This document shows, one piece after another, positions 3,311-41,580 of a stretch of 64,000 nucleotides of DNA. This DNA is from an uncultured delta proteobacterium (GTDB lineage: Bacteria; Desulfobacterota; Desulfobacteria; Desulfobacterales; B30-G6), in NCBI GenBank assembly GCA_963823335.1, contig CAWGLD010000001.1, forward strand, positions 1,184,001 through 1,248,000, in the 5' to 3' direction. The position numbers and the translations under genes were made by a program. Within the stretch, counting starts at the first letter, position 1; each line of letters starts with the position of its first letter. Under the pieces are notes generated by a model. It worked only from the letters and a program-made list of their open reading frames with translations, made no database searches and had not been told where the DNA came from.

Positions 3311-3393
3311 GTTGAACCGAAAAAGAGAGGCACCCCAGCGACGTGTTGGTACGTGGCGGAATTTCCGGCTTGTCTGGACCGCAGGATTCTTTA
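3311..3393 (-). repeat. degenerate copy of repeat family A in the mtbB leader
   Basis: GTTGAACCGAAAAAGAGAGGCACCCC...CCGCAGGATTCTTTA resembles GTTGAACCGAAACAGCGAGCGCATTCCCC...CTGCGGGGCTCTTCA at 21017. Confidence 0.55.
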
Positions 3394-3415
3394 TTTCCCA
3401 AATAAGGAGAGACAT

Positions 3416-25388: not shown

Positions 25389-26264
25389 TTATGTTACGGG
25401 TGGTATCAGTAGTGTGGGTATGTCCGTTTTTTCCGCCAGGTACCGGGGGGTGCTCCCGACCAGTTTTTCTTTTAAAGACGGGTTTGAGGACGTGCCGGCA
25501 ATGACCATGGTGGCATTGAACTCTTTGGCCGCCATAACAATTTCCTTAGCCGGATTTCCAACATACACGGCAGGCGATGCGTCTATCCCTTCTGCGATAA
25601 GCAGATCGCATAGTTTATCGAGTTTCCTGCGAATTTTTTTTCTGGTTTTCTGGACTCCCATGGCCGATGGCTCTTTCAAGCTTTTTGGATCCCCCACGTG
25701 GACAATGGTTGCTTTTTTAATGACCGGGGCCAAGGGTTTCAAATAATCGATTACTTTTTGGTTTGTTTTGGAGAAACAGGTGGCAAGGAGGGGTCGTTCA
25801 AATGGCTTTTCTACGGACAGGGTATTGTCGGGTTTGTACTTGTAAACCAGCACCGGTGTTTGAGATCGACGGATGATTCCCAGAATATCCGAAGAGGAAT
25901 AGAGCTGTTCGATACGACCTTTTTTCTTATAACCGACGACGATGAGATCGATATCTTCTTTCTCAGCGGCGGTGATAACCTGTTTTACCAGGCTCCCTAC
26001 AACAATATATGCCCCGACCTCGAGTCCTCTTTCAAACAGGGTTTCGGCCCAGTTGATAAAGCGGATATTGGCCATTTCTTTCAGGCGGACTTCTTCGACT
26101 TTCTGGTACCCTTTTCCTCTTCTCAGGGCGACTTTTTCCCGTTCAATGACATTGAGAAAAACGACATGATCGAAAGAGATTTTTCTTAAATCCATCAGAG
26201 ATTCAACTGCATCAAACCAAAGCTCTTCAAATTTGGTAACAAATAAAATTTTCCGGATATCCAT
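25389..26264 (-). CDS. tandem-domain universal stress protein
   Basis: RKILFVTKF, DLIVVG, LVGSTPRYLAE..IPTLLIP. Confidence 0.88.
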   Translation of the reverse strand: MDIRKILFVTKFEELWFDAVESLMDLRKISFDHVVFLNVIEREKVALRRGKGYQKVEEVRLKEMANIRFINWAETLFERGLEVGAYIVVGSLVKQVITAAEKEDIDLIVVGYKKKGRIEQLYSSSDILGIIRRSQTPVLVYKYKPDNTLSVEKPFERPLLATCFSKTNQKVIDYLKPLAPVIKKATIVHVGDPKSLKEPSAMGVQKTRKKIRRKLDKLCDLLIAEGIDASPAVYVGNPAKEIVMAAKEFNATMVIAGTSSNPSLKEKLVGSTPRYLAEKTDIPTLLIPPVT

Positions 26265-26358
26265 AATGATGGTTCCTTCTTTACCCCCGTGCGTAGCGAG
26301 GTTCAGTCAAAAAGGTGCTTTTGCAACTTGGCGAAACAAAGTGTTTTGGCAGATCGCT

Positions 26359-26751
26359 TTATCCGATAAACTTGTTGATCGCTGCTGAAAGTTCCTCGGG
26401 TTCAACCGGTTTTTCAAGGTAGATTTCGGGTTCCGGCACACTCTCACCGCCAAACTCGGTCAAGGCTTTTTGTGAACGCAGGAATGTTTTTTTTGCAATA
26501 CCGGAAAGAAGAATAACGGGAATATGTTTCAGGGACTTGTCGGTTTTCAAATCTCTGAATAGCCTGATACCGCTCTGTCTCGGCATGAGCACATCCAGAA
26601 TGACAAGGTCCGGTTTCTCTTCTTTCAGCAATTTGAGTCCTTCTTCGCCATTGCTTGCTTCAATGGGTGTAAAACCATTTTCCTCCACCACGGTAACATT
26701 GAACAATCTCACATCAGGGTCGTCATCTACGACAAGTACTTTTTTGCTCAT
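26359..26751 (-). CDS. single-domain response regulator
   Basis: VLVVDDD, PDLVILDVLMP, YLEKP. Confidence 0.93.
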   Translation of the reverse strand: MSKKVLVVDDDPDVRLFNVTVVEENGFTPIEASNGEEGLKLLKEEKPDLVILDVLMPRQSGIRLFRDLKTDKSLKHIPVILLSGIAKKTFLRSQKALTEFGGESVPEPEIYLEKPVEPEELSAAINKFIG

Positions 26752-26910
26752 GGTAAGGCCTCCCAGTGCCTGAATAAATAGTCTGTCACGACAGTCTGTA
26801 TCACCGATCGGTGATACAATTATCGAGTTGCCAAATTTTATTGATTCTTCTCCACTTTGGCTGGAGAAGAGGATTGAAGAATCTATTTTAGAGTGTATTT
26901 TTCATTATGC

Positions 26911-29900
26911 TTAATCTTCTTTCGGTTTAAAGGCCAACTTCATGATAAACGTCGTACCCTGGTTTAAATTGGAAATAACGTCGATACTTCCATGGTGCTC
27001 TTCAATCAGCTTGCGGGTTACGAGCAACCCCAGTCCGGTACCCTTGGCGCCTTTTGTGCTGAAAAAAGAAGAAAAAAGTTTTGTCTTGACACTGTCGGAC
27101 ATTCCGGAACCGTTGTCCGAGACTTCAAAGCGGATAATTGTTTCCCTTTCGAGAGCGGTCAGGACGCGGACTTCATGTTTTTTATCGACATTGTCGTCGA
27201 AGGTACACGCATCAATGGCGTTGGACACCAGATTTAGCAAGCACTGGTGGACCGTGTTCGGATCCATCCTGACTTCGCCGATGGCGGTCGAGAAATCTTT
27301 GACGATGTGAACACCATGGGTGCTTGCCATTTCCGTTACGAGCTCACAGACGTCATCGGCAATATCGTTAGGGAAGCAATTCTGGTATTCGGGCTCTCTT
27401 TCTTTTGAATAGGACAGAAGATCCATGACAAGATCGGATGTTTGATCGATGTTGCGCTTGATCATCTGCCAGCCATTAATTAGCTTGTCGGTGTTGTTTT
27501 TGTCAATGCCGAGATCTACCAGATAGCGGCCACCTTTAAAACCGGCAAGGATATTTTTTATGCCATGGGCCATGCCTGCTACGGTCTGGCCTATTGCGCC
27601 AAGGCGCTCGGAGTTGATCAGCTCACGCTCGAGTTTTTTGATCTCTGTCAGGTCCTGAAAAAACGCCACACCGCCCATCATCTGATTTTTTTCAAACAGC
27701 GGCATTCCAGAATAGTTGACGGGTATCTGCCGGCCATTTTTGGATTGGATCGTCGCTTCTTTCCACAATGTGAGGGGACGCAGCTCGGGGATGTTTATTT
27801 TTTCTTCGATGGACTGAATGACCTCACCAGGGAGGATGTCTTTTGCGTTAAGGTCTTTGGGGAGCTTGGGCCGGGTGTGTCCGAAAAGCCGTTCCGCTTC
27901 GGGATTGAAAAGAACGATATTCCAGTCTGCGTCGGTTGCCACAATGGCATTGTTAGAGCAACTGATGAGCTTGGACTGAAAATGGGCTTTTCGGCGGATT
28001 TCCTCCTGTAGTATGGAATTTTCAATGGCAACACCCATCCGGTTGCCGATAAGCTCCAGTACTTGGCGGTCTTCAGTGGTGAACTGTTTGAGCTGTCTGC
28101 TACTTGCCCGGATAACACCAAATGTCTTTTTTCCCTTATCCACAAGCGGGATATAGGCCAGGGATTGAAAGCCGACTTTTTTTAGTACGACGATTTCGCT
28201 GTTTTCGCTGCTTTTGATGTCTTCGAAAAGTTTGGCTTGATTGGTTTGGGCTACCTCGAACACCATGCTCTTGTTGTCAGGAAGACCATATTTTTTACAA
28301 AGGTCGCGATACTGGCCATGGCTGTATTTGAGACAGAATCTGCCATCCTCTCCAAGGATAAAAACGCAAATGACATCAAACAAAAATATATCGATAACTT
28401 TCTGTAATGCGTTGTTGATCCTTCCATCCAAATCCAGAGGTGCACTTAGTGTTGAATAGATGGCGCAGAGCGTTGCCAGTTCTCTGTTGCGTCTTTCCCG
28501 TTCTTCCTCGGCCCGTTTTTCATCGGTTCGATCCCAGATGGTTTCGATGGCACCGATCACGGTACCATCCGGATCTGTTATGGGGGCAGCGGTGAAAAGA
28601 ATCCATTTTTTCTCTTCTTCCGAACGGCCAAAATATTCTTCAGCTTCATATGCGCCGTCTATCAACTCCGATTTTTTCCACTGTGTGCCATAATAGCGCC
28701 AGAATTCTTCTTCACCGGCCTTGTCTAAAATAAGATCAGCCATGGTAGGTCTTTTTTCATCCCATGAAGGTTTCCAGTGCTGGTCTGTGCCGATGATTTG
28801 ATCCGCGGCATAGCCAGTCAGTTTTTCACAGGCTTTATTCCAGTGTGTCACGATATGATTTTTGTCTATCACAAAGGTGGGTATGGTGCTCCCCTGGATG
28901 ATCTGAGTCATGGTTTTTTCGCTGGCTTTGAGTGCTTTTGCCTTTTGGGCCAGTTCAACGTTCTGCTTTTCACGTTCTGTCTGAGCCTTTTTCTCTGCGG
29001 TTTTGTCCCAGATGGTTTCGATGGCGCCGATAATTTTGCCTTCCGGCGATCGGATGGGAGCAGCCGTGAAAAAGCACCATTTGCCCCCAGTTCCCAAATT
29101 GGGAAAAAAGACTTCAGCCTCATAAGCCTCATTCAGAAGGGCGGATTTGTGCCATTTTGTCCCATAAAGGCGTTTGATTTCCAGTTCACTGGTCTGATCT
29201 AATATGACGTCAGCCATGGACGGGCGCTTTTGATCGTAAAAGGATTTCCATTGATCCTTGGTGCCCACCATTTCCCGGGAGGGCAGTCCTGTGAGATTTT
29301 CCAGAGCCCTGTTCCAGTGCGTGATAACATGATTGATGTCGATGACAAACGTGGGGATGGTGCTGCCCTGGATGATTTGGGACATGATCTGCTGGCTTGC
29401 GGTTATGGCCCGGGTTTTTTCTGTCAGGGCGATATTGTGCTGCTTCCGCTCTTCATGGGACAATTTTTCTTCTGTTTTGTCCTGGAGTGTCTCGATGGCG
29501 CCGATGGTGATGCCTTGGGCGTTTTTTATGGGTGCAGCCGTAAAAAAAAGCCACTTGCCGTTGTCGCCGAGATGGTCGAAATACTCTTCGGCTTCATACG
29601 CCCCATTGATGAGATCCGATTTCTTCCACTTTGTCCCATAGTAGCGCCAGACCTCTTCCTCCTTTACACCGTCCAAGATCAGATCGGCCATGATGGGCCG
29701 TTCTTTTGATCTGAAAGGTTTCCAGTGGTTGCGGGTACCAACGATCTGTTTGGCGGAATAACCTGTCAGTTTCTCACAGGCCCTGTTCCAGTGGGTAACG
29801 ACATGATTTTTATTGATAAGGAATGTGGCGATGGTGCTGCCCTGAATAGCTTGAAATAAGGCTTTTTCACCGGTCACCATCTCTTTTCGGTTTGTCTGTG

Positions 29901-30372
29901 CGTAGACGTCCTGTTCTGTGGTCAGGTGTATGATGGATTGATAAAACTCCTCAAAGAGAGCCTCAATCTTCGCACCATCGTTTCGAGTTTCGCGGAGTCT
30001 TTTCAACAGCTCAGTTTTTTTTGTCTTTATTGACAATTGCTGCAGAATAAAACGTGCCTCGAAAAAATCGACAAACGCAACCCCGGGAGGTTTGTTTAAT
30101 AGGATATCTTCCCCCAGGTTGATGTCCTTGGTCAGTTCGATAATTAGATCCAGGTTTTCAAGAGTGAAAAGCTCTTTATAATCTGTGGTGGTAAAAATTC
30201 CCATTTCTCGAGCATAGACCAGACCGGCAGCTTCCAGGTTCAGATCGGCCACCCCGAGGACATTGGGCTTTCCGGCATCGAAAGCCTCGCTGAAAATGGA
30301 TTTGAGAAGTGCCAGGCAGAATCGGCCGCCTCCGACGATGACAATATTCGCTTTTTCTAATCGTTCTATCAT
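26911..30372 (-). CDS. soluble multi-PAS/GAF histidine kinase with an N-terminal Rossmann-like domain
   Basis: IVIVGGG N-terminus, three repeated PAS/PAC units, GAF, PAS, AHGIKN H-box, NLVSNAIDA, DNGSG, GTGLGL. Confidence 0.92.
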   Translation of the reverse strand: MIERLEKANIVIVGGGRFCLALLKSIFSEAFDAGKPNVLGVADLNLEAAGLVYAREMGIFTTTDYKELFTLENLDLIIELTKDINLGEDILLNKPPGVAFVDFFEARFILQQLSIKTKKTELLKRLRETRNDGAKIEALFEEFYQSIIHLTTEQDVYAQTNRKEMVTGEKALFQAIQGSTIATFLINKNHVVTHWNRACEKLTGYSAKQIVGTRNHWKPFRSKERPIMADLILDGVKEEEVWRYYGTKWKKSDLINGAYEAEEYFDHLGDNGKWLFFTAAPIKNAQGITIGAIETLQDKTEEKLSHEERKQHNIALTEKTRAITASQQIMSQIIQGSTIPTFVIDINHVITHWNRALENLTGLPSREMVGTKDQWKSFYDQKRPSMADVILDQTSELEIKRLYGTKWHKSALLNEAYEAEVFFPNLGTGGKWCFFTAAPIRSPEGKIIGAIETIWDKTAEKKAQTEREKQNVELAQKAKALKASEKTMTQIIQGSTIPTFVIDKNHIVTHWNKACEKLTGYAADQIIGTDQHWKPSWDEKRPTMADLILDKAGEEEFWRYYGTQWKKSELIDGAYEAEEYFGRSEEEKKWILFTAAPITDPDGTVIGAIETIWDRTDEKRAEEERERRNRELATLCAIYSTLSAPLDLDGRINNALQKVIDIFLFDVICVFILGEDGRFCLKYSHGQYRDLCKKYGLPDNKSMVFEVAQTNQAKLFEDIKSSENSEIVVLKKVGFQSLAYIPLVDKGKKTFGVIRASSRQLKQFTTEDRQVLELIGNRMGVAIENSILQEEIRRKAHFQSKLISCSNNAIVATDADWNIVLFNPEAERLFGHTRPKLPKDLNAKDILPGEVIQSIEEKINIPELRPLTLWKEATIQSKNGRQIPVNYSGMPLFEKNQMMGGVAFFQDLTEIKKLERELINSERLGAIGQTVAGMAHGIKNILAGFKGGRYLVDLGIDKNNTDKLINGWQMIKRNIDQTSDLVMDLLSYSKEREPEYQNCFPNDIADDVCELVTEMASTHGVHIVKDFSTAIGEVRMDPNTVHQCLLNLVSNAIDACTFDDNVDKKHEVRVLTALERETIIRFEVSDNGSGMSDSVKTKLFSSFFSTKGAKGTGLGLLVTRKLIEEHHGSIDVISNLNQGTTFIMKLAFKPKED

Positions 30373-30391
30373 AAAATGCTATCCAGCCTTA

Positions 30392-31279
30392 TTATGGAAT
30401 CAGTAGAACCGGGAGTTCAGACAGTTCTGCTATTTGATGAGAAACGCCTCCCAGCCAGTATTCCTGGAACCAGTCTTTTCCTGTTCTTCCCATCACAATC
30501 ATGGAGGCTTTATGGTCTCTTGAAAGCCTTACAAGCTCCGGAACGGTTTTTCCGGCTGACAGGTGATACTCAGCCTGCATACCGGATTGTGCGATCTTCC
30601 GACAGTAGTTTTGGAGCCGTGATTTACTTTCCTTTTCAATCTGGTTGAGTCTGTCGTGATTCATTCCTTTGGTGAGTTTGGCATCAATGACATGCACCAC
30701 GAGAATGGTTTTTGCAAGTCCCTTTAATGCTGACATGCCTTGCCTTGCATTATCTGATGGCTGCGACCAGTCCGTGGCGAGCATCGGTCGTTCAAAAATA
30801 TGTTCGTTGGTTCGTGTTAGCTGCTCGTTTTCCCATTCAAACTGAACCATATATTTGCTCATGAGTACCGGCACCTTACTACGCCGCAGGATATCCATGA
30901 TGTGTGAACCCACGTATACCCTTTCCATCAGGGTTCTTTTTTTCCTGCCGATGACAATCAAGTCAACATCCTCTTTTTCGGCAATGGTCAGAATTTCCGC
31001 ATTCGGGGCACCGACTTCGATCCTGATATGGCTCTCAATGCCATGTTGGGCGATTGTTTCCTGCCAGTCCTCGAACCGCATGCGTGCTTCCGCTTTCAAC
31101 TGGGCTTCTGTTTCCTTGAGATAGCCCCCATATGGAACAAAGGAGACCTCGTCCCGTGGAATGATATGGGTCAGGAAAATCGATTCCAGTCCTGCTTTTT
31201 TCAATTCCAGAATGGTCTTTAGGGAATTGAGTGCCAGTTCTCTGAAATGTGTATGAAATAAAACCTTTCTAAAAATCAT
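30392..31279 (-). CDS. tandem-domain universal stress protein
   Basis: FRKVLFHTHF, DLIVIGR, LATDWS, LGGVSHQIAE..LPVLLIP. Confidence 0.88.
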   Translation of the reverse strand: MIFRKVLFHTHFRELALNSLKTILELKKAGLESIFLTHIIPRDEVSFVPYGGYLKETEAQLKAEARMRFEDWQETIAQHGIESHIRIEVGAPNAEILTIAEKEDVDLIVIGRKKRTLMERVYVGSHIMDILRRSKVPVLMSKYMVQFEWENEQLTRTNEHIFERPMLATDWSQPSDNARQGMSALKGLAKTILVVHVIDAKLTKGMNHDRLNQIEKESKSRLQNYCRKIAQSGMQAEYHLSAGKTVPELVRLSRDHKASMIVMGRTGKDWFQEYWLGGVSHQIAELSELPVLLIP

Positions 31280-31293
31280 GAATCAACTCCTTT

Positions 31294-32814
31294 TCAAAAG
31301 AAAATGAGGGAGACAATGGCAAATGTGGGAATGAGAAAAATCATGGAATATTTAAATATGTAGCCAAAGAAGCTCGGCATGGGTGTTCCAGTTTCTTCGG
31401 CAATCGAGCGGACCATGAAGTTGGGCGCATTGCCGATATAACTGCATGCGCCGAAGAAGACTGCCCCTGTTGAGATGGCTTTTAAATAAATTGCATTTTC
31501 GGTCATCAACAGGGGCACGGCCTGAGCTTCGGTGAGGCCGGAATAAAAACTTCCCAGCGCCGTGTTGAAAAAGGTAAGATAGGTGGGAGCGTTGTCCAGA
31601 AAGGCGGACAGCGCGCCGGTAACCCAGAAGTAATGATAGGGTTTTTCCACGATGCTGATCAGGAAAGCCAGATCACCATGGGTGCCAGCCTTCAGTATCA
31701 GCAGACATGGTATCATGGTAATAAATATGCCGATAAAGAGATAGGCCACTTCAATAATGGGAAACCAGGTAAACTCATTGTCCTCCCTGAGTTTAATGGG
31801 TGTCGTAACCAGGGAGGCGACACCCAGCAGAACCAGAAGGCCGTCTCGGAGCCAGTCCTGAATTGCCCTGTGAATTCCCAGGATGTTGATTTCCCCCAGA
31901 TCGACCATGCCGCTCATCAAAACGGAACCCACCACACCGCCAAGAAACAGGAAGTTGTAGGTTCCTTCGATTTTAAGGGCTTCTTTTGCTTCTTCCTTGG
32001 GAACGGATGCAGATTCTTTGCGGTAATGGTAGGTGTCCAAAAAGAAATATATGATCAGAAGCATACCAGACACCATCAGCATGTGGGGCATGATTTTAAA
32101 TGTCCAGAAAAAAGTGACACCATGGAGGTAGCCCAGAAACAAGGGTGGGTCCCCCAGGGGTGTGAGCGACCCGCCCACATTGGCGACCAGGAAGATGAAA
32201 AAAACCACCATGAAGGTTCTGTTTTTGCGATAGTTGTTGGCTCTCAGGAACGGACGTATCAAGAGCATGGCGGCCCCTGTGGTTCCCATCCAGGACGCCA
32301 GGAGGGTACCGAGAATCAGTATGATGGTATTGACGACCGGTGTCCCCCTCAGGGAACCCCGTAATAAGATACCACCCGAAACCGTATAAAGCGACCAGAG
32401 AAGGATGATAAATGGCACATAATCAACCAGGATGATATGCAGGATTTCATAAACGGCCCCGCCCCTGAAAACCCATAAAAAGGGAATGCCCAGAACGGCC
32501 GCCCAAAAAGCGGAAATTTTGCCGAAATGATGATGCCAGAAATTTGGCAGGAGTAGGGGCAGCAGGGCGATGGAGAGCAGCATGCATGCAAAAGGGATAC
32601 AGCTCCACAGGGGCAGAATTTCTCCAAGGTTGACATGCCCGCTCCCATGTGCCGATGCCTGGGTGGAACCATGTGCTGCAGGATCATCCGTGTTTTCCGG
32701 AGCATGCCCGGTACTTGGGGTATCGGATGCGTGGGTTTCGGCAATCATCGGTACCGGCCAGAACAAGAAACACAGCAGGAATAAAAGGACAGCCATTGTT
32801 TTTGGAAAACGCAT
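31294..32814 (-). CDS. ion-transporter superfamily protein (putative Na+/H+ antiporter or carboxylate transporter)
   Basis: Many TMs; ANVGGSLTPLGDPPLFLG, SAFLDNAPTY, YIGNAPNFMV; signal peptide and His-rich linker. Confidence 0.8.
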   Translation of the reverse strand: MRFPKTMAVLLFLLCFLFWPVPMIAETHASDTPSTGHAPENTDDPAAHGSTQASAHGSGHVNLGEILPLWSCIPFACMLLSIALLPLLLPNFWHHHFGKISAFWAAVLGIPFLWVFRGGAVYEILHIILVDYVPFIILLWSLYTVSGGILLRGSLRGTPVVNTIILILGTLLASWMGTTGAAMLLIRPFLRANNYRKNRTFMVVFFIFLVANVGGSLTPLGDPPLFLGYLHGVTFFWTFKIMPHMLMVSGMLLIIYFFLDTYHYRKESASVPKEEAKEALKIEGTYNFLFLGGVVGSVLMSGMVDLGEINILGIHRAIQDWLRDGLLVLLGVASLVTTPIKLREDNEFTWFPIIEVAYLFIGIFITMIPCLLILKAGTHGDLAFLISIVEKPYHYFWVTGALSAFLDNAPTYLTFFNTALGSFYSGLTEAQAVPLLMTENAIYLKAISTGAVFFGACSYIGNAPNFMVRSIAEETGTPMPSFFGYIFKYSMIFLIPTFAIVSLIFF

Positions 32815-33108
32815 TTACAAGCACCTTTCCTTATAGTATCTTTTCATCGTTATCATTTTCATCGTCGTCATATAGATGCATAGAGTTTCGATTCTAAGGC
32901 ATACCGGCTGTGCAACAGCGCCATCATCATTCTATCGTGGCGGAGGTAAGATAGTGAAAGCACATCCTATACCAAGTTTCAATATAATTCAACGCATGAT
33001 CCATAAACCAAAAAAAATAATTATTGCATTTTCAGATGGGTATGCTATCGAAGAAAACCTGCGTTTCCAATCCCGAAGCATCTGTTTCCTTACATGCTGG
33101 GGGGTTGC

Positions 33109-33342
33109 GTGAACCTCGATTACAAAAAGCATCGTGCATGGGCGGAAAATCTTTCCATTGTCATGCAGATAGGACTGACCATGGCAGGATGTGTTGGTTT
33201 TTGTTTTTTTATCGGTCTCACTCTTGACCGGTGGCTCGGCATTCGAGGACTTTTTACGGTGATTTTTATTCTTTTGGGGATTGCAGGCGGGGCCAATGTC
33301 GTCTATCGTCAGGTTATGGAGATCATCGAGCCAAAAAAGTAA
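33109..33342 (+). CDS. AtpZ/AtpQ-like F0 accessory protein
   Basis: Two TMs, IGLTLDRWLG motif, first gene of the atp cluster. Confidence 0.8.
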   Translation: MNLDYKKHRAWAENLSIVMQIGLTMAGCVGFCFFIGLTLDRWLGIRGLFTVIFILLGIAGGANVVYRQVMEIIEPKK

Positions 33343-33361
33343 AGTGTCATGTTAGGGAAGA

Positions 33362-33748
33362 ATGGAAGCTATTCACCATACACAGAAAAAATTTGGATCC
33401 AGGGCCATGGTCATGGCTGTTATCGCCGGTATGATTTTTATCCTGGTGGGTCAAAAGTCGATTGCCAAAGGCTTGGTGCTCGGTTCTGTTTTCAGTGTCA
33501 TCAATTTTGTTCTGATCGGTGAAATTATGCCGATGATCATCACGGCATCCCGTAAGAGATCTGTTCTGTTCTCCTTTGCTTCGATGCTGTTTCGATTTCT
33601 GTTGTTATCGGCGCCCCTTCTTTTGTCGCTGAAAATGGAAAGCCTGAATTTTGCTGCTGCCACCGTCGGAATCTTTATGGTGCAGATCGTGATCATGGGA
33701 AGCCATCTTCTAAGGTTAATTTACCCCGAAGGGATGCAAGGGACGTAA
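33362..33748 (+). CDS. ATP synthase protein I-like
   Basis: Four TMs, GLVLGSVFSVINF, FRF; precedes subunit a. Confidence 0.8.
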   Translation: MEAIHHTQKKFGSRAMVMAVIAGMIFILVGQKSIAKGLVLGSVFSVINFVLIGEIMPMIITASRKRSVLFSFASMLFRFLLLSAPLLLSLKMESLNFAAATVGIFMVQIVIMGSHLLRLIYPEGMQGT

Positions 33749-33760
33749 CATAGGACTGTT

Positions 33761-34435
33761 ATGGGAGAACTGGGTAGAATACATCAGCTGATCATTCCGT
33801 TTTACGGACATGACATCACGTTGAATCTGGAAGTCATCCTCATGACGTGGATTGTTTTCTTTCTGTTGATCCTTGTGGGCTTTTTGTCCTCACGCAAGAG
33901 AGCCGTCTACCCCAAGGCCATGCAGGTCTTTGGAGAAATTTTTATCACCCAATTTTATCAGATCACCGAGGATGCGCTGGACAAGAAGATGGCAAAAACA
34001 TATGGTCCTATGATTTGTGCGCTTTTCATGTTTCTTGTGCTGGCAAACTGGCTCGGTATTATTCCCTATCTGGAGGAACCCACAAAGGATCTGAACACAC
34101 CCCTCAGCCTGGGTCTCATGGGGTTTGTGATTGCCCATGTGGCCGGTATTAAATCGAAGGGTTTTAAAGCATATGCCAGGGAATATTTTGAACCGATGTT
34201 TTTTATGATGCCGCTGAATGTCATTGGCGAGTTGGCCAAAATAGTTTCCATATCCTTTAGGCTTTTTGGAAACATCATGGGAGGATCGATCATTATCCTG
34301 GTGGTCTCTTACCTCACATACAGCGTACTCCTGCCGCCTCTGCTCAACGCATTTTTCGGTCTTTTTGTGGGGACGATACAGGCCTTTGTTTTTACCATGC
34401 TGACGGTTGTTTATATTTCGGTCCAGGTAAAGTAG
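33761..34435 (+). CDS. atpB: F0 subunit a
   Basis: PTKDLN, SISFRLFGN (essential Arg), IQAFVFTML. Confidence 0.95.
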   Translation: MGELGRIHQLIIPFYGHDITLNLEVILMTWIVFFLLILVGFLSSRKRAVYPKAMQVFGEIFITQFYQITEDALDKKMAKTYGPMICALFMFLVLANWLGIIPYLEEPTKDLNTPLSLGLMGFVIAHVAGIKSKGFKAYAREYFEPMFFMMPLNVIGELAKIVSISFRLFGNIMGGSIIILVVSYLTYSVLLPPLLNAFFGLFVGTIQAFVFTMLTVVYISVQVK

Positions 34436-34438
34436 AAC

Positions 34439-35413
34439 ATGATTATGGATGTCCATACAGTTGTAACCCTTTCCGCATTCACCGGTGCCGGTGTCGCCAT
34501 GGGGCTGGGTGCCATCGGTGCCGCCATCGGAGAGGGCTATACCGCCGGTGTAGCGAATACCGCCATTTCCAGGAACCCGGAGATCTCCGGTGACATTTTC
34601 AAAAATATGCTGGTGGGACAGGCGGTTGCAGAATCTGCATCTATTTTTGCTCTGGTAATTGCGGTGCTGATGCTTTTTCTGGATGTTCCGACGGACAACC
34701 TGCTGAAGGGAGCGGCCCTTTTTGGCGCAGGACTTTGTATGGGGTTTGGTGCGGTGGGTTCGGGTGTGGGTTCTGGATTTCCAGGCGGACAGGCGTGTCT
34801 GGGTATTTCGCGTCAACCGGCCGCTGCATCCCGTTTGACCACCGGTATGTTGATCGGCTCCGCAGTATGCCAGACACCCGCCATTTTTTCCATGGTTATC
34901 GCATTGATGCTGATCTTTATGGATTTCAGCCACCTGCCGCTTGCCCCGACGTGGGCAGCTATTTTAGGTGCGGGACTGAGTACCGGTCTTGCAGCGATTG
35001 GTTCCGGTTATGGCGGTGGACTGGCGGCCGGTGCCAGCTGTGAAGGAATTTCCAGACAACCTGAATCGGTGGGCAATGTAACCACCGTAATGCTGGTGGG
35101 ACAAGCCGTCGCGCAAACACCATCCATTTTCGGATTGCTGGTCAGTTTTATTCTTATCTTCAAATCGTTTCCTGAATCATACACGTTGCAGGCATCCATG
35201 GCTCTGTTATCTGCAGGTGTCTGTATGGGATTCGGTGGTATCGGACCGGGTATCGGCAACGGTATGGCTGCTGAAGGAGCGGTACGGTGGGTCGCCCGTA
35301 ATGTGGAGAATGCCGGTGAACTCATGCGGATCATGCTGGTGGGACAGGCGGTCTCACAGTCGACAGCTATCTATGCCATGGTAGTGTCGCTGGTGTTGAT
35401 ATTTGTCGTGTAG
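34439..35413 (+). CDS. fused four-hairpin F0 c subunit (324 aa)
   Basis: Four GxGxxMGxGA/R(N/Q)P-type units of about 80 aa; carboxylate position is E65, Q145, Q226, Q307. Confidence 0.9.
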   Translation: MIMDVHTVVTLSAFTGAGVAMGLGAIGAAIGEGYTAGVANTAISRNPEISGDIFKNMLVGQAVAESASIFALVIAVLMLFLDVPTDNLLKGAALFGAGLCMGFGAVGSGVGSGFPGGQACLGISRQPAAASRLTTGMLIGSAVCQTPAIFSMVIALMLIFMDFSHLPLAPTWAAILGAGLSTGLAAIGSGYGGGLAAGASCEGISRQPESVGNVTTVMLVGQAVAQTPSIFGLLVSFILIFKSFPESYTLQASMALLSAGVCMGFGGIGPGIGNGMAAEGAVRWVARNVENAGELMRIMLVGQAVSQSTAIYAMVVSLVLIFVV

Positions 35414-35504
35414 TTTTATTTATAGAATAATAGATGAAGTTTAATTAGCGGCGCAGCCGCGACACATAAAATCGTGTAACGATTTTATTAAGGAGGAACG
35501 ACAA

Positions 35505-35753
35505 ATGGCTATTGAAGGTGTTGATATTGTAAAAGCCGCGGCTTTTTTAGGCGCAGGTATCTCCATGGGTCTCGGTGCCATCGGCCCGGGCGTGGGTGAG
35601 GGAATGGTGGCTGCCAAGGCATGTGAAGCCATCGGCAAGAATCCGCGCGAGGCAGGACTGCTGACCCGGACCATGCTGGTGGGACAGGCCGTATCTGAGT
35701 CCACCGGTATCTATTCCCTGGTCATAGCGTTGCTGCTGTTGTTTGTGGTGTAG
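35505..35753 (+). CDS. atpE: F0 subunit c with Na+-binding signature
   Basis: GPGVGEG...ESTGIY; strong AAGGAGG RBS. Confidence 0.95.
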   Translation: MAIEGVDIVKAAAFLGAGISMGLGAIGPGVGEGMVAAKACEAIGKNPREAGLLTRTMLVGQAVSESTGIYSLVIALLLLFVV

Positions 35754-35760
35754 TCCACCT

Positions 35761-36216
35761 ATGCAGATTATAAGTAACATAGCGCTCATCAGCATCAACG
35801 AGACCCTGGTGATCCAGTTGATCTCTTTTTTAATCTTTCTTTTCATTATCAACCGGATCATGATTCGGCCGCTACGGGCAACCATGGCGGAAAGGGATAA
35901 CCATATTCAAATGGTCCGGGAGGACATTCTCGATTCGAAGAAGGAACTCGAGGAGATCGTGGATGAATCAAACCAGGAGGAAAAAGAGATACGGCAGGCG
36001 GCCCTCCAGATCGTGGCCGAGATGGAAGGCCTTGGGCAGCATGAAGCCCACGACATCATTGGCGTGGCAAGGAAAGAAATTGCTGTCGTGAAAAAGCAAA
36101 CACAGGCTGAAATTGAGCGCCTTCTTGCCGAGGCCATGACATCCGTACAAAAAGAGGCTGAGATCCTTTCGGTTTCCGTCATGGAAAAGATCCTGGGTAG
36201 GAAGGTGTCACCATGA
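35761..36216 (+). CDS. F0 subunit b'
   Basis: INETLVIQLISFLIFLFIINRIMIRP followed by coiled coil. Confidence 0.88.
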   Translation: MQIISNIALISINETLVIQLISFLIFLFIINRIMIRPLRATMAERDNHIQMVREDILDSKKELEEIVDESNQEEKEIRQAALQIVAEMEGLGQHEAHDIIGVARKEIAVVKKQTQAEIERLLAEAMTSVQKEAEILSVSVMEKILGRKVSP

Positions 36217-36809
36217 CACCAATGGTTTTTAAAAACTGGAAAAGCATTGCCTGGTGGATGTTTTTTATGGTTATGGTGGTGACAACCACAGAGGCCCTGG
36301 GTGCGGAAGCGGCGGTTAACTGGCGCCCGACTTATGACAGTGTGATGCGCTGGCTCAACTTTGGGATACTGATCGTGCTCTTTTTCAGGTATGCCCGCAA
36401 ACCGTTGGTAACCTTTTTAAACGGGAAATCCAGGCAGATCGAAGAAAACATCAAAAGTGTCGAAGCGGAAAAAGAGGCCATCAGGATACGTATCGATGAA
36501 CTGCAAAGGGAACGAGAAGAAGGCCGCCAACAACTGCACCAGATTCGGGACAGAGTCATTTCCCAGGGAAAGCTGAAAAAGCAGAAAATCATCGATGACG
36601 CCAAAAAAGAGAGTCATCTGTTATTGGAAAGTGCCAAACAGAAAATAGAGCATGAAATAACATCTGCACGAAAGAAGCTGCAAGCTGAAATAGTTGATCA
36701 GTCCATTGACCTGGCCATGCAAAAACTCCCCCAAATGATGACCGATCAGGATACCCAAAACAGCCTGAAAATGTATCTTGAAGGGATTCATTCCCTGACC
36801 AAATCCTGA
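36213..36809 (+). CDS. atpF: F0 subunit b
   Basis: RWLNFGILIVLFFRYARKPL followed by coiled coil. Confidence 0.88.
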   Translation: MTPMVFKNWKSIAWWMFFMVMVVTTTEALGAEAAVNWRPTYDSVMRWLNFGILIVLFFRYARKPLVTFLNGKSRQIEENIKSVEAEKEAIRIRIDELQREREEGRQQLHQIRDRVISQGKLKKQKIIDDAKKESHLLLESAKQKIEHEITSARKKLQAEIVDQSIDLAMQKLPQMMTDQDTQNSLKMYLEGIHSLTKS

Positions 36810-37109
36810 CCGTCCCTATTTATGGTTAATTAAGATACTATACGCCGGCAAGTAGCATCTATCAAAATTATATTTCCAAACTGCCTCTCATATCACAGTT
36901 TTTGGATCAGGATAATATTTTCATCTTCTGGTGGGCTATTTCAGAATTCATAAAAGTGAAAACGTTTTCCGTGATTGTGACTTCGGATATCCCCGGGTTG
37001 ATGCCATTTCAGAAGCTTTGCCCTTTTCATTCGATTGTGCTATGTAAAATCAATTCATAACGTAGGTTTATACTCCCTCACCCGAATCTTTTTTTAGTAA
37101 GGAGCCGAC

Positions 37110-37658
37110 ATGAATAAAACTCAAGTGAAAGAGATAATGATTCCGATCTTGAACTACGTGACAGTTAAAAAAGAAAATACCCTGGTTGAGGTTTTACAGT
37201 CTTTGGAACAGGCCCGGAAGTCAGAGAACGAACATGCCCATAGAGACGCAATCGTGGTTGATGCAAACGGTGTTTTTGTAGGCAAAGTTACCATGATCGA
37301 TGTTTTTTGGGCCCTGGAGCCTAATTATTCAAAGGTTGAACAGCAACAGGAACAGGGCGTACTGACTGCCGATTTTGTCATGAAAGCCGCCAAAGATTTT
37401 AATTTATGGATTGAACCCACGCAAACCATTTGCGAGCGAGGGAGCCGCTTAACGGTTTCCGATGTAATGCATACGCCGGAAAAGATGGAATATATCGAAG
37501 AAACAGCCACCATTGATAACGCATTGCATTTATATGTTCTGGGCATCCATCAGCCACTTATCGTGAACAATAAGGACGCGAAGGTTACAGGCGTTTTACG
37601 GTTTGGTGATGTATTTGAAGTCGTCAGACAACGTTTGTTGAACTGCAGTGTTTCTTAA
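37110..37658 (+). CDS. CBS domain protein
   Basis: VKEIMIP, VGKVTMID, VSDVM, VTGVLRFGD. Confidence 0.85.
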   Translation: MNKTQVKEIMIPILNYVTVKKENTLVEVLQSLEQARKSENEHAHRDAIVVDANGVFVGKVTMIDVFWALEPNYSKVEQQQEQGVLTADFVMKAAKDFNLWIEPTQTICERGSRLTVSDVMHTPEKMEYIEETATIDNALHLYVLGIHQPLIVNNKDAKVTGVLRFGDVFEVVRQRLLNCSVS

Positions 37659-37715
37659 ATTTTCGACATGACTTCTAAAATAAAAGTTAAGGAATAACGT
37701 ATAGATATAACGCCA

Positions 37716-39557
37716 ATGAATTTTCCCCCACCACCCAATACCCATGCCATGGCCGTGCTGATCCTTACCATTGTTGCACTGGTCCTGTTTACCCGTGAAA
37801 AGATACCCCTAGAATCCTCCAGTTTCCTGGTGCTCATCGGTCTGGCCGTTGGGTTCGAAGTCTTTCCGTTCCAGGCGAACGGAGGCGTTTTACACGCCGT
37901 GGACTTTTTCCGGGGTTTCGGACACGAGGCGCTGGTTGCCGTCTGCGCTCTGATGATCGCCGGGCAGGGTATCGTCCGCACGGGGGCGCTGGAACCCGTG
38001 GGAAGGGTGCTGACGCGGTTCTGGAAGGTGAGCCCGAGCATCTCCCTGCTGCTGACTCTTATTGTTGGAGCCCTTATCAGTGCGTTTATAAACAATGTTC
38101 CCGTTGTCGTATTGTTTCTCCCTATTTTGATCAACGTTTCCCTGCGCACGGGTATGAAGGCCTCTTCCGTGTTGATGCCCATGGGATTCGCCACCCTGCT
38201 GGGGGGCACGTGCACCACCATCGGAACCTCCACAAATCTGCTGGTGGTCTCCGTGGCAGCAGAGATGGGCTTGAAACGGATGGATATGTTCGATTTCCTG
38301 GTGCCGGCAGCCATTGCCGGAAGCATCGGTATCGCTTATCTCTGGCTCGTGGCGCCTCGGATCATACCGGAGCGTGAACCAACCATGGCAGACACATCTC
38401 CCAGGGTTTTCTCTGCCCATCTTGCCATTCCTGAAGGAAGCCCGATTGAAGGAAAGACGCTGGCCCAAGCCAGAAAAAAAGTAGATGGGGCCATGAAAGT
38501 CACAAGCGTGGAGCGTGGGCTTGACAATTTCATGATACCCTTTCCAACTCTGGTGCTGAAAGCCGGCGACCATCTGATTATCCGTGACACGCCCGATCGC
38601 TTGAAGGAGTTTGAAAAGATACTGGAGGGAACGCTCTATGCAGATGACGCCATGGTCGCACCTGTTGACGATGAGCACCCGTTAAAGGATGAAGATCAGC
38701 AGATCGCGGAGGTCGTCCTCATAGAAGGCTCCCGTCTTGCGGGAAGAACTCTCAGCGGAACCCGATTCGCGGACCGGTACGGGATGATTACCCTGGCCAT
38801 ACACAGGGCCGGCATTCACCCGGAAAAGTTATACGACGAAATCGGGGATATTCGTCTGAAAGCCGGGGATATCCTCCTGGTTCAGGGACCCCGAGAACAG
38901 ATCGCCGGTCTCAAAAAAGAAAAGGATTTTCTCGTGCTGGATGCCACGGCGGATCTGCCTTTTGCCCGTAAGGCACCGTTGGCCCTGCTCATTATGCTGG
39001 GTATCATTGTTTCGGCCGCCGTAGGGTTTCTGCCCATCGCCATCAGCGCATCGCTCGGGGCGCTGTTGATGATTTTCACGGGATGCCTGGGATGGCGTGA
39101 TGCCACCAGCGCACTGAATGCGCAGGTTATCCTTATCGTGACCGCAAGTCTCGCCATCGGGGTTGCAATGCTCAAGACCGGCGGTGCTGATTACCTTGCA
39201 CAACTTTTTGTTGCTCTGGCAGGGGGCACTTCGCCGGTCCTAGTGATCAGCGGGCTGATGCTTCTGATGGGCATCCTCACCAACATCGTTTCCAACAACG
39301 CAGCAGCGGTCATCGGCACCCCCATCGCCGTTTCAATTGCCGCCCAGATGGGACAGCCGGCCGAACCGTTTGTCCTGGCCGTGCTCTTCGGAGCCAATAT
39401 GAGCTATGCCACCCCCATGGCCTACAAAACCAATCTCCTCGTCATGAACGCTGGGAACTACACCTTCAATGATTTTCTTCGAGTTGGGGTACCGCTGGTC
39501 CTGATAATGTGGGTTACGCTTTCCTGGTTGCTTCCGACCCTTTACGGTATAAAATAA
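37716..39557 (+). CDS. SLC13/DASS-type permease with TrkA-C domains
   Basis: SAFINN, GGTCTTIGTSTN, two RCK-C-like units, TNIVSNNA, TPMAYKTNLLV. Confidence 0.9.
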   Translation: MNFPPPPNTHAMAVLILTIVALVLFTREKIPLESSSFLVLIGLAVGFEVFPFQANGGVLHAVDFFRGFGHEALVAVCALMIAGQGIVRTGALEPVGRVLTRFWKVSPSISLLLTLIVGALISAFINNVPVVVLFLPILINVSLRTGMKASSVLMPMGFATLLGGTCTTIGTSTNLLVVSVAAEMGLKRMDMFDFLVPAAIAGSIGIAYLWLVAPRIIPEREPTMADTSPRVFSAHLAIPEGSPIEGKTLAQARKKVDGAMKVTSVERGLDNFMIPFPTLVLKAGDHLIIRDTPDRLKEFEKILEGTLYADDAMVAPVDDEHPLKDEDQQIAEVVLIEGSRLAGRTLSGTRFADRYGMITLAIHRAGIHPEKLYDEIGDIRLKAGDILLVQGPREQIAGLKKEKDFLVLDATADLPFARKAPLALLIMLGIIVSAAVGFLPIAISASLGALLMIFTGCLGWRDATSALNAQVILIVTASLAIGVAMLKTGGADYLAQLFVALAGGTSPVLVISGLMLLMGILTNIVSNNAAAVIGTPIAVSIAAQMGQPAEPFVLAVLFGANMSYATPMAYKTNLLVMNAGNYTFNDFLRVGVPLVLIMWVTLSWLLPTLYGIK

Positions 39558-39614
39558 CACCCGAAATCGTATCAATTGCATCGATACTATCTAAATTTCA
39601 ACTGCGCGACGATA

Positions 39615-40610
39615 TTAGCCAACAGTTCCAGCGAAGAAACAGGATACCCTATGGCCCTGTTCTATTTCTTTAAAAGGGGGCTCCTGGGTACGACAGACAT
39701 CTTTTACATAGAGGCAGCGCGTGTGAAACCGGCACCCTTTTGGCGGGTCGATGGGGCTGGGGACATCTCCCTTCAGAATGATCCGTTTTTGTTTTATGGT
39801 GGGGTCCGGGGTGGGAGATGCGGATAACAAGGCCTGGGTATAGGGGTGCAGGGGGCGCCGATAGAGTTTTTCACTGTCGGCGAGCTCCACGAGTTTACCC
39901 AGGTACATGACGGCCACCCGGTCGCTGATGTGTTCTACAACACTCAGGTCGTGGGAGATGAACAGGTAGGTCAAGTTGAACTCCTCCTGCAGATCTTGAA
40001 AAAGATTGATGACCTGTGCCTGGATCGAAACGTCCAGCGCTGATACGGCTTCATCACAGATGATAAGCTGGGGGTTGAGAGCCAGCGCCCGCGCAACACC
40101 GATTCGCTGACGTTGCCCACCTGAAAACTGGTGCGGATAGCGTCGCATGTGTTCCCGTTTCAGCCCCACGACTTCCAGAAGTTCCAAAACCCTGGCATCT
40201 CTTTCTCTGCGGTCTCCGACGCCATGAACCAGCAGGGGTTCTCCGATGATATGGGCGACTGTTTTCCTCGGGTTCAATGAAGAGAAAGGGTCCTGAAAGA
40301 CGATCTGCATTTCTCTTCGCAGGCTGCGGACTTGTGCAGGGCTGTATTCGAGAATGTTTTCCTCGTTGAAATAAACAGCGCCGGCCGTGGGTTCTTCCAG
40401 TCGCACAATGGCGCGACCCAGGGTCGATTTTCCGCACCCGGATTCACCTACGAGACCCAGGGTTTCCCCTTTGTTGATGGAGATATCCACACCATCGACC
40501 GCTTTGACGGAGGCAATCTCTTTTAAGAACACGCCGCCAAGAATCGGATAATGTTTTACCAGCCCTTCGGCTCTCAAAAGCGGTTTTATTCCGGAAGCGG
40601 TATCATGCAT
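39615..40610 (-). CDS. dppF: dipeptide/oligopeptide ABC ATPase
   Basis: [33 protein letters not shown]. Confidence 0.9.
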
Positions 40611-41580
40611 ATTTCAGGCACCTCACCGCATGATTTTCCCCCACAGCATATTGCCGGGGGGATATTTTGCGACAGTCGGAAAACACATCCGGGCAGCGGT
40701 CACTGAAGAGGCAGCCCTCCGGCAGGTCAAAAAGAGACGGAACCACACCTGCAATAGTGGAAAGTCGTTTTGATTTTATCTTTTTTCCCAGAACGGGAAT
40801 CGATTCCATGAGGCCGATGGTATACGGGTGTTTTGGGGTCAAGAAAAGGGTTTTGGCACTGGCATACTCCACGATGCGCCCGGCATACATGACGGCTACG
40901 TGTTGTGCCATTTCGGCAATGACCCCCAGGTCATGGGTGATAAAGAGAATGGATGCCCCTGTGTCCTCTTTCAGTTTGTTCATGAGATCGAGAATCTGAG
41001 CCTGAATAGTTACATCCAGCGCTGTCGTCGGTTCATCTGCGATCATCATTTTAGGGTTACAGGCCAGCGCCATGGCAATCATGACCCGTTGCCGCATGCC
41101 ACCACTCATCTGGTGAGGGTATTCATCCAAACGTCGATCCGCAGCCGGGATGCCGACCCGCTGAAACATTTCGACTACCCGTGAGCGGGTTTCTTTTGCC
41201 GATAGCTTTTTGTGCAATCGAATTACCTCTCCCACCTGATCCCCTACGGAGAAAACCGGGTTGAGGGATGTCATGGGTTCTTGAAAAATCATGGAAATCT
41301 GATTGCCCCTGATTTTTCGCATCTGTTTTTCAGAATAGGCGAGCAGATTATTGCCATTGAAAATGATTTGACCACCCACGATTTTGCCGGGGGGATCTGG
41401 AATCAGTTGAATGATGGAATGGGCGGTGACGCTTTTACCGCAACCGGATTCTCCCACAAGACCCAAGGTCTGTCCCGATTCGATGGTCAGACTGACATCG
41501 TCGACAGCTTTTGCCACCTGGCCGCGCACAAAAAAATGGGTTTGTAAATTAACGATGTCTAATAGTGCAGTATCCGGCAT
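40603..41580 (-). CDS. dppD: dipeptide/oligopeptide ABC ATPase
   Basis: [38 protein letters not shown]. Confidence 0.9.

Follow-up and report, generated by a model that had tools for sequence, protein, structure and literature searches.

We analysed a 64,000-nt stretch of DNA from an uncultured deltaproteobacterium (GCA_963823335.1, contig CAWGLD010000001.1, positions 1,184,001 to 1,248,000 of the forward strand), hereafter the window, and focused on an operon in it that encodes the membrane sector (F0) of a rotary ATP synthase. The operon consists of seven open reading frames (ORFs) on the plus strand, which run across window positions 33094-36809 with gaps of at most 91 bases or short overlaps (Table 1). 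The ORF calls and Pfam matches bore out the gene order atpZ-like, atpI, a, fused c, c, b' and b given in an earlier reading of the letters by themselves (the sequence-only reading), together with the approximately 300 bp of AT-rich DNA and the CBS gene said to follow (a 300-bp spacer with 37-40% GC). The end proposed there, at 36809, also stood, whereas the proposed start at 33109 proved to be an in-frame GTG inside an ORF that begins at 33094. Similarly, the fused c gene is indeed present, but it encodes four hairpins instead of two. The features of an F0 sector are in place, namely a PF00119 subunit a with its arginine, c with its carboxylate and two PF00430 stalk genes. Furthermore, as had been claimed, genes for delta, alpha, gamma, beta and epsilon, the subunits of the F1 head, are lacking, since a Pfam scan of 55 window ORFs detected none of the F1 families (alpha/beta, gamma, delta and epsilon). 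A PF00006 signal at about 41401-41499 of the window (20.9 bits) fell below the cut-off and lies within an ABC-transporter ATPase gene. Because the seven genes are order-conserved in the 80 closest loci, contig permitting, the operon is not a chance pattern of ORFs.

Table 1. Features of the F0 operon and its borders (positions in the window; values are those of the Pfam matches).
Feature	Position	Strand	Evidence and remarks
Upstream spacer, from the divergent CitMHS_2 gene to atpZ	32815..33093	.	presumed promoter region, from the sequence read
atpZ-like small membrane protein, 82 aa	33094..33342	+	PF09527 ATPase_gene1, 4.6e-15; precedes atpI/a in related loci
atpI, 128 aa	33362..33748	+	PF03899 ATP-synt_I, 1.8e-06
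F0 subunit a, alternative paralogue, 224 aa	33761..34435	+	PF00119, 8.8e-50
Fused c, four hairpins, 324 aa	34439..35413	+	four PF00137 (ATP-synt_C) stretches, 8.8e-57
Single-hairpin c, 82 aa	35505..35753	+	one PF00137, 1.3e-18; two-carboxylate Na+ motif
Stalk b', 157 aa (longest ORF; start overlaps the c end)	35743..36216	+	PF00430 ATP-synt_B, 1.3e-16
Stalk b, 198 aa	36213..36809	+	PF00430, 6.5e-16; coiled-coil part full-length
AT-rich spacer, 300 bp, operon end	36810..37109	.	GC 0.37-0.40 vs about 0.45-0.55 in genes
CBS-pair gene	37110-37658	+	1.3e-10

We then counted the F0 and F1 genes of the organism's own genome by profile searches of all 11 contigs of the assembly, which is 93.9% complete. 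As a result, two F0 sets and one F1 set were found. Subunit a is encoded twice, in the window and on contig C8 (229 aa); five c hairpins lie in the window, one on C8 (a 93-aa single-hairpin c) and none elsewhere; and the four b-family genes are divided between the window and contig C5, two each. The genes for alpha, beta and gamma occur once each, all on C5, where the order is b'-b-delta-alpha-gamma-beta-epsilon, and the module on C8 is of the ordinary atpZ-atpI-a-c order. Two other PF00006 matches above the cut-off were Rho-type proteins with Rho RNA-binding domains, not F1 subunits; one has 415 aa (Rho_N, Rho_RNA_bind and ATPase domain) and the other 382 aa without Rho_N, and their loci are L003 (G000:C1:1734548-1738162) and L004 (G000:C7:191629-195240).

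Besides the split set that is usual for deltaproteobacteria, the genome consequently contains a third locus, the window operon, with all the genes of an F0 including a stalk pair of its own. A division of the deltaproteobacterial atp genes between 0C and 0B is described in the passages covered of PMC4154653, and the C5 and C8 loci match exactly the split layout with b'/b heading F1 that the sequence-only reading had taken as the norm. Unlike such split sets, in which a-c stands apart from b'-b-delta-alpha-gamma-beta-epsilon, the window operon is additional to them and has its own a, two c genes and b'/b but no F1 gene, in keeping with the earlier remark that its layout fits neither a split set nor an N-ATPase operon. 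It is not the genome's only F0, as the second a/c module on C8 attests, nor is there a dedicated F1 cluster lacking b and b', the only F1, on C5, being led by its own b'-b.

The distribution of the operon was investigated in two sets of genomes. A scan of one genome per species gave 212 loci with relatives of the fused c, of which the best 80 were taken for the close-locus results. These were all Desulfobacterales-type records, including the complete genome of Desulfosarcina widdelii PP31 (L059), a chromosome-level metagenome-assembled genome (MAG) and an Olavius symbiont MAG, and they kept the order Z-I-a-c4-c-b'-b wherever the contig permitted. Among them, no F1 gene was found 3' of b in the 59 loci that contain b', b and at least 2 kb downstream, nor within the 7-kb flanks, on the strand of fused c, in the 79 loci with a fused c. 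Five further genomes with the operon were searched whole, and in 5/5 one F-type alpha/beta pair accompanied two F-type a genes; D. widdelii carries a third a as well, located between a second beta and a second alpha, which is the N-ATPase order.

The second set was an even sample of the phylum Desulfobacterota with 401 genomes from 255 genera. A multi-hairpin c, with open frames of 2 to 6 hairpins, is present in 44 of these genomes (34 genera). Of the 43 carriers other than our genome, 41 have at least two a genes, and the two one-a genomes are 81% and 89% complete. A single F-type-scoring gamma (E value of 1e-90 or better) was found in 42 of the 43, among them G241, where it lies in two pieces on two contigs. 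An additional weak gamma (1e-51 to 1e-60) is present in seven genomes, and the six operons fetched were N-ATPase-ordered. In 39/39 loci the second F-type a is part of a Z-(I)-a-c module whose c has a single hairpin, and neither b nor an F1 gene adjoins the module.

These counts bear on the simplest alternative, i.e., that a dedicated F1 was missed in a gap of our 11-contig, 93.9% complete assembly, the operon being one half of a second complete, split ATP synthase. With one F-type alpha/beta pair in 5/5 further carriers, the complete genome and the chromosome-level MAG among them, and one F-type gamma in 42/43 sampled carriers, we consider this very improbable.

The relation of this F0 type to F1 became apparent in the phylum sample. 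Thirty sample loci contain b' and b and extend 2 kb or more beyond them, and in 10 of these a window-type F0 stands directly before F1. Nine of the 10 are ordered Z-a-cN-c-b'-b-delta-alpha-gamma-beta-epsilon, and in these delta overlaps the b stop codon. The tenth, L109 (G319:C14:36977-55977), reads Z-I-a-c4-c-b'-b-b'-b-delta-alpha-gamma-beta-epsilon, with the stalk pairs in tandem, and looks like an intermediate between the F1-linked and F0-only layouts. The atpI gene is kept in the F0-only loci and was undetected in the relatives' F1-linked operons. Because the window-type F0 stands in cis with delta-alpha-gamma-beta-epsilon in these 10 of 30 loci, it is a genuine partner of F1. Only one b'/b pair above the Pfam cut-off, the one inside the operon, was found in 5/5 F1-linked genomes checked, and therefore the two a/c modules of those genomes share the stalk and F1, if both work. 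The F1 cluster opens with its own b'-b in 20/20 F0-only genomes checked.

A further arrangement was found in G391, where delta-alpha-gamma-beta-epsilon lies directly upstream of Z-I-a-c4-c-b'-b, with no b upstream of delta (L103/L143/L189, G391:C2). An ordinary a/c module was not found in this genome (95% complete), whose only other a is N-type, within an N-ATPase operon (L160, G391:C51). If the absence of the ordinary module is real, the four-hairpin F0 is the sole F-type membrane sector of G391.

Phylogenies were inferred for a, with N-type a as outgroup, and for b and b' by quick tree searches with Shimodaira-Hasegawa-like approximate likelihood ratio test (SH-aLRT) support, under LG+G4 without a mixture model in the case of b. 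The a tree (88 rows) contains two deep F-type clades, an alternative clade of 42 rows that includes the window a (support 99) and an ordinary clade of 40 rows (95), and the six N-type a of the outgroup stand apart (100). The family groupings are much alike within the two F-type clades, which argues for two old, vertically inherited a paralogues. An origin of the operon as a horizontal gene transfer island was rejected, as its base composition is unremarkable and the family groupings of the alternative a are much like those of the ordinary a. In the b/b' tree (122 proteins), b is separated from b' (100), and in each half the alternative-linked and F1-linked copies of the F0-only genomes group together (82 for b, 87 for b'), to the exclusion of the copies from F1-linked operons; the window b belongs to a sister clade to the F1-linked b genes.

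The trees suggest that the window layout arose from duplication of b'b and fission of the operon, in that order. The ancestor would have been a complete operon, Z-a-cN-c-b'-b-delta-alpha-gamma-beta-epsilon; a tandem duplication of b'-b, a state still present in L109, would have followed, and a last fission between the two b'-b pairs would have left the window layout. The window operon is, by this reconstruction, the presumed derived and fully separated form of an old trait found repeatedly in the phylum sample.

We also asked whether the subunits that would contact F1 or the rotor have been maintained. The arginine of the SFRLFGN motif of subunit a (Arg167 in the window a), which we take to be the essential stator Arg in the penultimate helix, is kept in 88/88 aligned a sequences, even though the window a shares only 30% identity (67/221) with the a encoded on C8. 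The alternative b' ends in ...EK(I/V)LGR (...EKILGR in the window), an ending common to F1-linked b', and the alternative b keeps the C-terminal D-Q..L pattern in a weaker version. Pairwise ratios of nonsynonymous to synonymous substitutions (dN/dS) against three close relatives were 0.00-0.05 for the genes of a, c4 and c; those of Z and I were 0.03-0.20, and those of the stalk genes b' and b were 0.20-0.31. Purifying selection therefore acts on the whole set of seven, and the operon is maintained. The absence of F1 genes, and nothing further, would suit a second ATP synthase that was lost and of which the operon is the decaying remainder, but the ORFs are intact in related loci, dN/dS stays at 0.00-0.31 for all seven genes, and the alternative a forms a deep clade with family groupings much like those of the ordinary a, so that a remnant is hardly credible.

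The maintained stalk speaks in the same way against the idea that this F0 acts independently of F1, either as a gated Na+ conductance or as a rotor coupled to a non-F1 partner. The lack of an F1 gene within 7 kb in 79/79 close loci is what such a role would predict, and stress and transport genes do lie nearby: among the 63 related loci with enough upstream DNA, a universal stress protein (Usp) gene is located at most 3.5 kb upstream of fused c in 24 and a CitMHS_2 gene in 17. Two full-length stalk genes under purifying selection, a b' with the C-terminal motif of F1-linked b', the occurrence of the same F0 type in cis with F1 in 10/30 phylum loci, and the probable derivation of the b'/b pair from a duplicated F1-linked pair nevertheless make it improbable. 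We further predicted the complex of the genome's delta with the C-terminal parts of the alternative b' and b, which reached a score of 0.60, the highest of three controls being 0.18, with a contact agreement of at least 95% and partner predicted local distance difference test (pLDDT) values of at least 79. Of 157 solved complexes, 116 reach the mark that this prediction passed, as do two of 215 mismatched pairs; scores of 0.60 or under belong to only 18 of those solved complexes and to both passing mismatches, and the result was graded as weak support. As stalk-delta complexes are solved, the pass may reflect likeness only.

We then investigated the rotor subunits for their ion-binding residues. 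In a hairpin-by-hairpin alignment of the fused c, hairpin 1 is the sole one that keeps the helix-2 Glu (E..AESA..F), and Gln replaces the ion-binding Glu in hairpins 2, 3 and 4 (CQTP, AQTP and SQST, respectively). The membrane-buried carboxylate is present in hairpin 1 and in the single c. HMMER alignment of the latter with the c subunits of Fusobacterium nucleatum (3ZK1) and Ilyobacter tartaricus (1YCE) placed its helix 1 Glu and its helix 2 ESTxxY at the positions of Glu32, Glu65, Ser66, Thr67 and Tyr70, to which, in the passages covered, the coordination of Na+ is assigned in F. nucleatum (PMC3692424); according to the corresponding part of Mulkidjanian et al., the Thr67 position is polar in every predicted Na+ enzyme (PMC2359735). 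The side-chain ligands of the single c are identical to those of the F. nucleatum c11 ring (3ZK1), and it thus has the ligand set of the Na+-coupled c of I. tartaricus and F. nucleatum (Gln or Glu at 32, Glu65, Ser or Thr at 66, a polar residue at 67 and Tyr70). The F. nucleatum ring differs in having one c type, with 11 hairpins and 11 sites (3ZK1; PMC3692424).

At the same positions (32/65/66/67/70), the fused c shows E, E, S, A and F in its first hairpin, an incomplete Na+ ligand set, and the ordinary c on C8 shows Q, E, S, L and Y, without a polar residue at 67. These differences are general. Among the 119 single c genes adjoining a fused c, E32 with EST..Y is found in 115 and Q32 with EST..Y in three. 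The 40 ordinary c genes all have Glu65-Ser66 and Tyr70, with Leu or Ile always at position 67 and Gln (33), Met (6) or an alignment gap (1) at position 32. Since Leu or Ile stands where Na+ enzymes have a polar residue, the ordinary c is probably H+-coupled; the alternative module is probably Na+-coupled.

The sites left in the fused c were also compared among relatives. One Glu in four hairpins is found in 78 of the 79 close relatives, the remaining one being a truncated ORF, and 116 of the 120 best database proteins are of the pattern EQQQ, EQQQQ or EQQQQQ. In the phylum sample (40 fused c genes; L100-L142), one carboxylate is kept in 20 and two or three in the other 20, with the patterns EQQQ (8), EQQE (8), EQQ (8), EQQQE (7), EQQQQQ (2), EQEE (2), EQE (2), EQQQQ (1), EE (1) and EQ (1). 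In certain five-hairpin forms, a four-hairpin c seems to have been joined to the next single c. The earlier proposal that a swap of membrane sectors would change coupling ion or gearing finds support at the level of sequence, in the Na+ motif of the single c against the incomplete motif of the ordinary c for the ion, and in one carboxylate per four hairpins for the gearing.

The fused c was modelled with AlphaFold2 (27-row alignment; pLDDT 95.0, predicted template modelling score 0.91) as four helical hairpins. Its best solved match is c1 of Acetobacterium woodii, 4BEM_J (1.6e-24 by sequence; fold E value 8.2e-07, root mean square deviation 1.7 Å over 156 columns), followed in the fold search by V-type c/K subunits; no solved chain covers the four-hairpin span. 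The best solved relative of the single c is likewise the A. woodii ring 4BEM. As in A. woodii, the gene of a single-hairpin c directly follows that of a fused, multi-hairpin c in which Gln replaces Glu in one or more ion-less hairpins, and the ligands are of the Na+ type. The A. woodii c1, however, has two hairpins, of which the second is ion-less with Gln for Glu, whereas the window fused c has four with three ion-less, and its relatives have 2 to 6. F0 and F1 of A. woodii are encoded in one operon, and to our knowledge there is no second F0 in that organism. The one-operon arrangement of F0 and F1 is found in neither the window nor the 59 scorable close loci, but in 10 of the 30 phylum loci.

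From these results we favour, with a probability of about 0.7, a complete second F0 that has no head of its own and assembles with the cell's only F1 as a second form of the enzyme. Gene counts, recurrence in relatives and the cis linkage with F1 elsewhere support the complete alternative F0 without its own F1 that had been proposed from the letters. The window genes would provide a, a rotor of four-hairpin and single c, their own b'/b and the assembly factors AtpZ and AtpI, and this F0 would join the sole F1 (alpha3beta3-gamma-delta-epsilon, from C5) beside the ordinary form built on the C8 a/c. The second form would be Na+-coupled, through Glu32/Glu65/Ser66 in the single c and hairpin 1, with Thr67 and Tyr70 added in the single c. 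By analogy with c1(c2/3)9 of A. woodii, the fused and single c may share one ring, in which the three Gln hairpins would pass the stator Arg ion-free. Fewer Na+ would then be needed per turn and per ATP than the hairpin count implies, and such a low-ratio form could make more ATP per ion under a steep Na+ gradient or, working in reverse, drive Na+ up a steeper gradient.

An exchange of individual subunits, in place of a whole sector, would account for part of the same evidence. Here the fused c, the Na+-type c or both would enter the ordinary ring, or the a subunits would be interchangeable, the operon being a modifier kit. Rings of unlike c subunits do exist (A. woodii 4BEM has nine C2 chains and one C1 chain), and with two a/c modules for one b'/b pair in 5/5 F1-linked genomes parts are shared anyway. 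The co-inheritance of alternative a, fused c and single c in all loci seen, the 30% identity between the two a, the different ion ligands of the two c types and the presence of dedicated stalk genes in the window-lineage module are hard to reconcile with such a kit, which we therefore regard as unlikely.

Several points weigh against the assembly of a second F0 with the sole F1. The pairing is a prediction from genes, not a finding of an experiment or proteome. At 93.9% completeness, a second F1 in a gap is possible for this genome taken alone, but a gap is an unlikely excuse because the same imbalance is shown by 5/5 further carriers, two of them finished chromosomes. As to expression, 16 estuary metatranscriptome runs contain part of the operon (share of words 0.05-0.42), and contigs of four runs cover the seven genes at 93-99+% likeness, along with 21 to 29 of the 30 bins of window 29000-41000; such contigs show neither level nor strand, DNA carry-over is possible, and neither the contigs nor their thin cover over the two spacers count as evidence on transcription. 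The trees come from quick searches with SH-aLRT as the only support, and the key nodes of the b tree are at 79-91. The assignment of the ordinary c to H+ hangs on one absent polar ligand, at position 67, and with Gln32 (33 of 40), Glu65, Ser66 and Tyr70 in place this c could also bind Na+. Furthermore, the carboxylate number is not uniform, given the 20 of 40 phylum-sample genes that keep two or three; three successive ion-less hairpins have no solved or biochemical precedent in the literature and structures searched, A. woodii having one per ring; and any stoichiometry of fused and single c in a ring, and with it any Na+/ATP figure, is conjecture.

The ATP synthase is usually viewed as an invariable machine, one to an operon, whose ion/ATP ratio follows from the size of its ring. 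In the present case, a large group of environmentally important anaerobes appears to have two sectors for one head, with different predicted ions, and in the rotor of one sector up to three quarters or more of the hairpins are predicted to be ion-less. If the pairing is real, it would be a natural modular re-gearing of a rotary motor, a test of how much site depletion of the c-ring is compatible with turning, and a route by which energy-limited sulfate reducers balance their proton and sodium economies. We tentatively extend this, as a speculation that may well prove wrong, to a natural gearbox in part of the Desulfobacterota (44/401 genomes), where H+-type and Na+-type a/c modules would compete for one F1 and the number of fused hairpins (2 to 6) would set the Na+/ATP ratio stepwise. 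Were that so, with one fused subunit per 11-hairpin ring, the ratio would go from about 3.3 down to 2.0, the two forms together could interconvert proton force and sodium force via the ATP pool at a chosen exchange ratio, and the window lineage would be furthest along, with an Na+ module that has its own stalk and a separately regulated operon. Since a cultured carrier with a complete genome exists, D. widdelii PP31, the pairing question is directly testable.

A duplicated, ectopic F0 was reported from Desulfococcus oleovorans (Koumandou and Kossida 2014, PMC4154653), where, in the passages covered, its b was found to group within the deltaproteobacteria and its a and c with Thermotogae, and its meaning was left open. 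It was presented there for one species as possible horizontal gene transfer or species-specific duplication, and, unlike the present work, those passages contain no fused c, Na+ motifs, sharing of F1 or wider spread (PMC4154653). The D. oleovorans duplicate is likely of the same operon family as that of the window. Literature searches found no multi-hairpin F-type c and no two F0 per F1 described in Desulfobacterota, with ProAD (PMC11738941) and 10.64898/2026.10.01.756066 covered by terms only, so that their supplements may list such clusters.

Like an N-ATPase (Dibrova, Galperin and Mulkidjanian 2010, as cited in PMC4154653), the window F0 is a second rotary membrane sector with an Na+ motif beside an ordinary F-ATPase, and certain carriers of window-type operons also have an N-ATPase. 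The statement in the sequence-only reading that N-ATPase operons carry their own F1 genes proved right in 6/6 loci of relatives, with the order beta-epsilon-...-a-c-b-alpha-gamma, whereas the window has none. The defining N-ATPase order is beta-epsilon-(Q,R)-a-c-b-alpha-gamma, without delta. The N-type models scored below their cut-offs for TIGR03306 (126.9 vs 302.1) and TIGR03321 (32 and 25.8 vs 224.7); with TIGR03322 (cut-off 130.85) the single c reached 65.1, and the four-hairpin c reached 152.2 only by summing its four hairpins. Membership in the N-ATPases was thus rejected, on the sub-cut-off a, b and single c, the lack of an own F1 and the separate a clade (100).

Finally, we inspected the control regions and the neighbourhood of the operon. 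No Rfam family was found at E<=1 in window 32500-37300, which includes the upstream spacer. Sigma-70-like sites were not above shuffled sequences (9 found vs 7.0 +/- 2.7 expected), nor were terminator-like sites (6 vs 4.8 +/- 2.6), none of which was called in the 36810-37109 spacer. The block adjoining the operon (window 25392-32814, minus strand) contains signalling and stress genes, namely a tandem-Usp gene (25392-26264), a response regulator (26362-26751), a 1153-aa PAS/GAF histidine kinase (26914-30372), a second tandem-Usp gene (30392-31279) and the CitMHS_2 transporter (31294-32814). The neighbouring Usp and signalling genes may hint at a stress-linked control of the operon. On its 3' side (window 37110-39557, plus strand), the CBS-pair gene, which is without counterpart in related loci, is followed by a gene for a 613-aa CitMHS permease with two TrkA_C domains.

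Elsewhere in the window, two methylamine methyltransferase genes lie on the plus strand at 3353-4798 and 5225-6718, each with one in-frame TAG, after which the frame is open to a TGA. The TAG is at codon 370 in the Dimeth_PyL gene (2.5e-134) and at codon 335 in the MTTB gene (two ORFs, 4.8e-55 and 4.1e-33), and these TAG-interrupted methyltransferases match the pattern expected for putative pyrrolysine-encoding genes.

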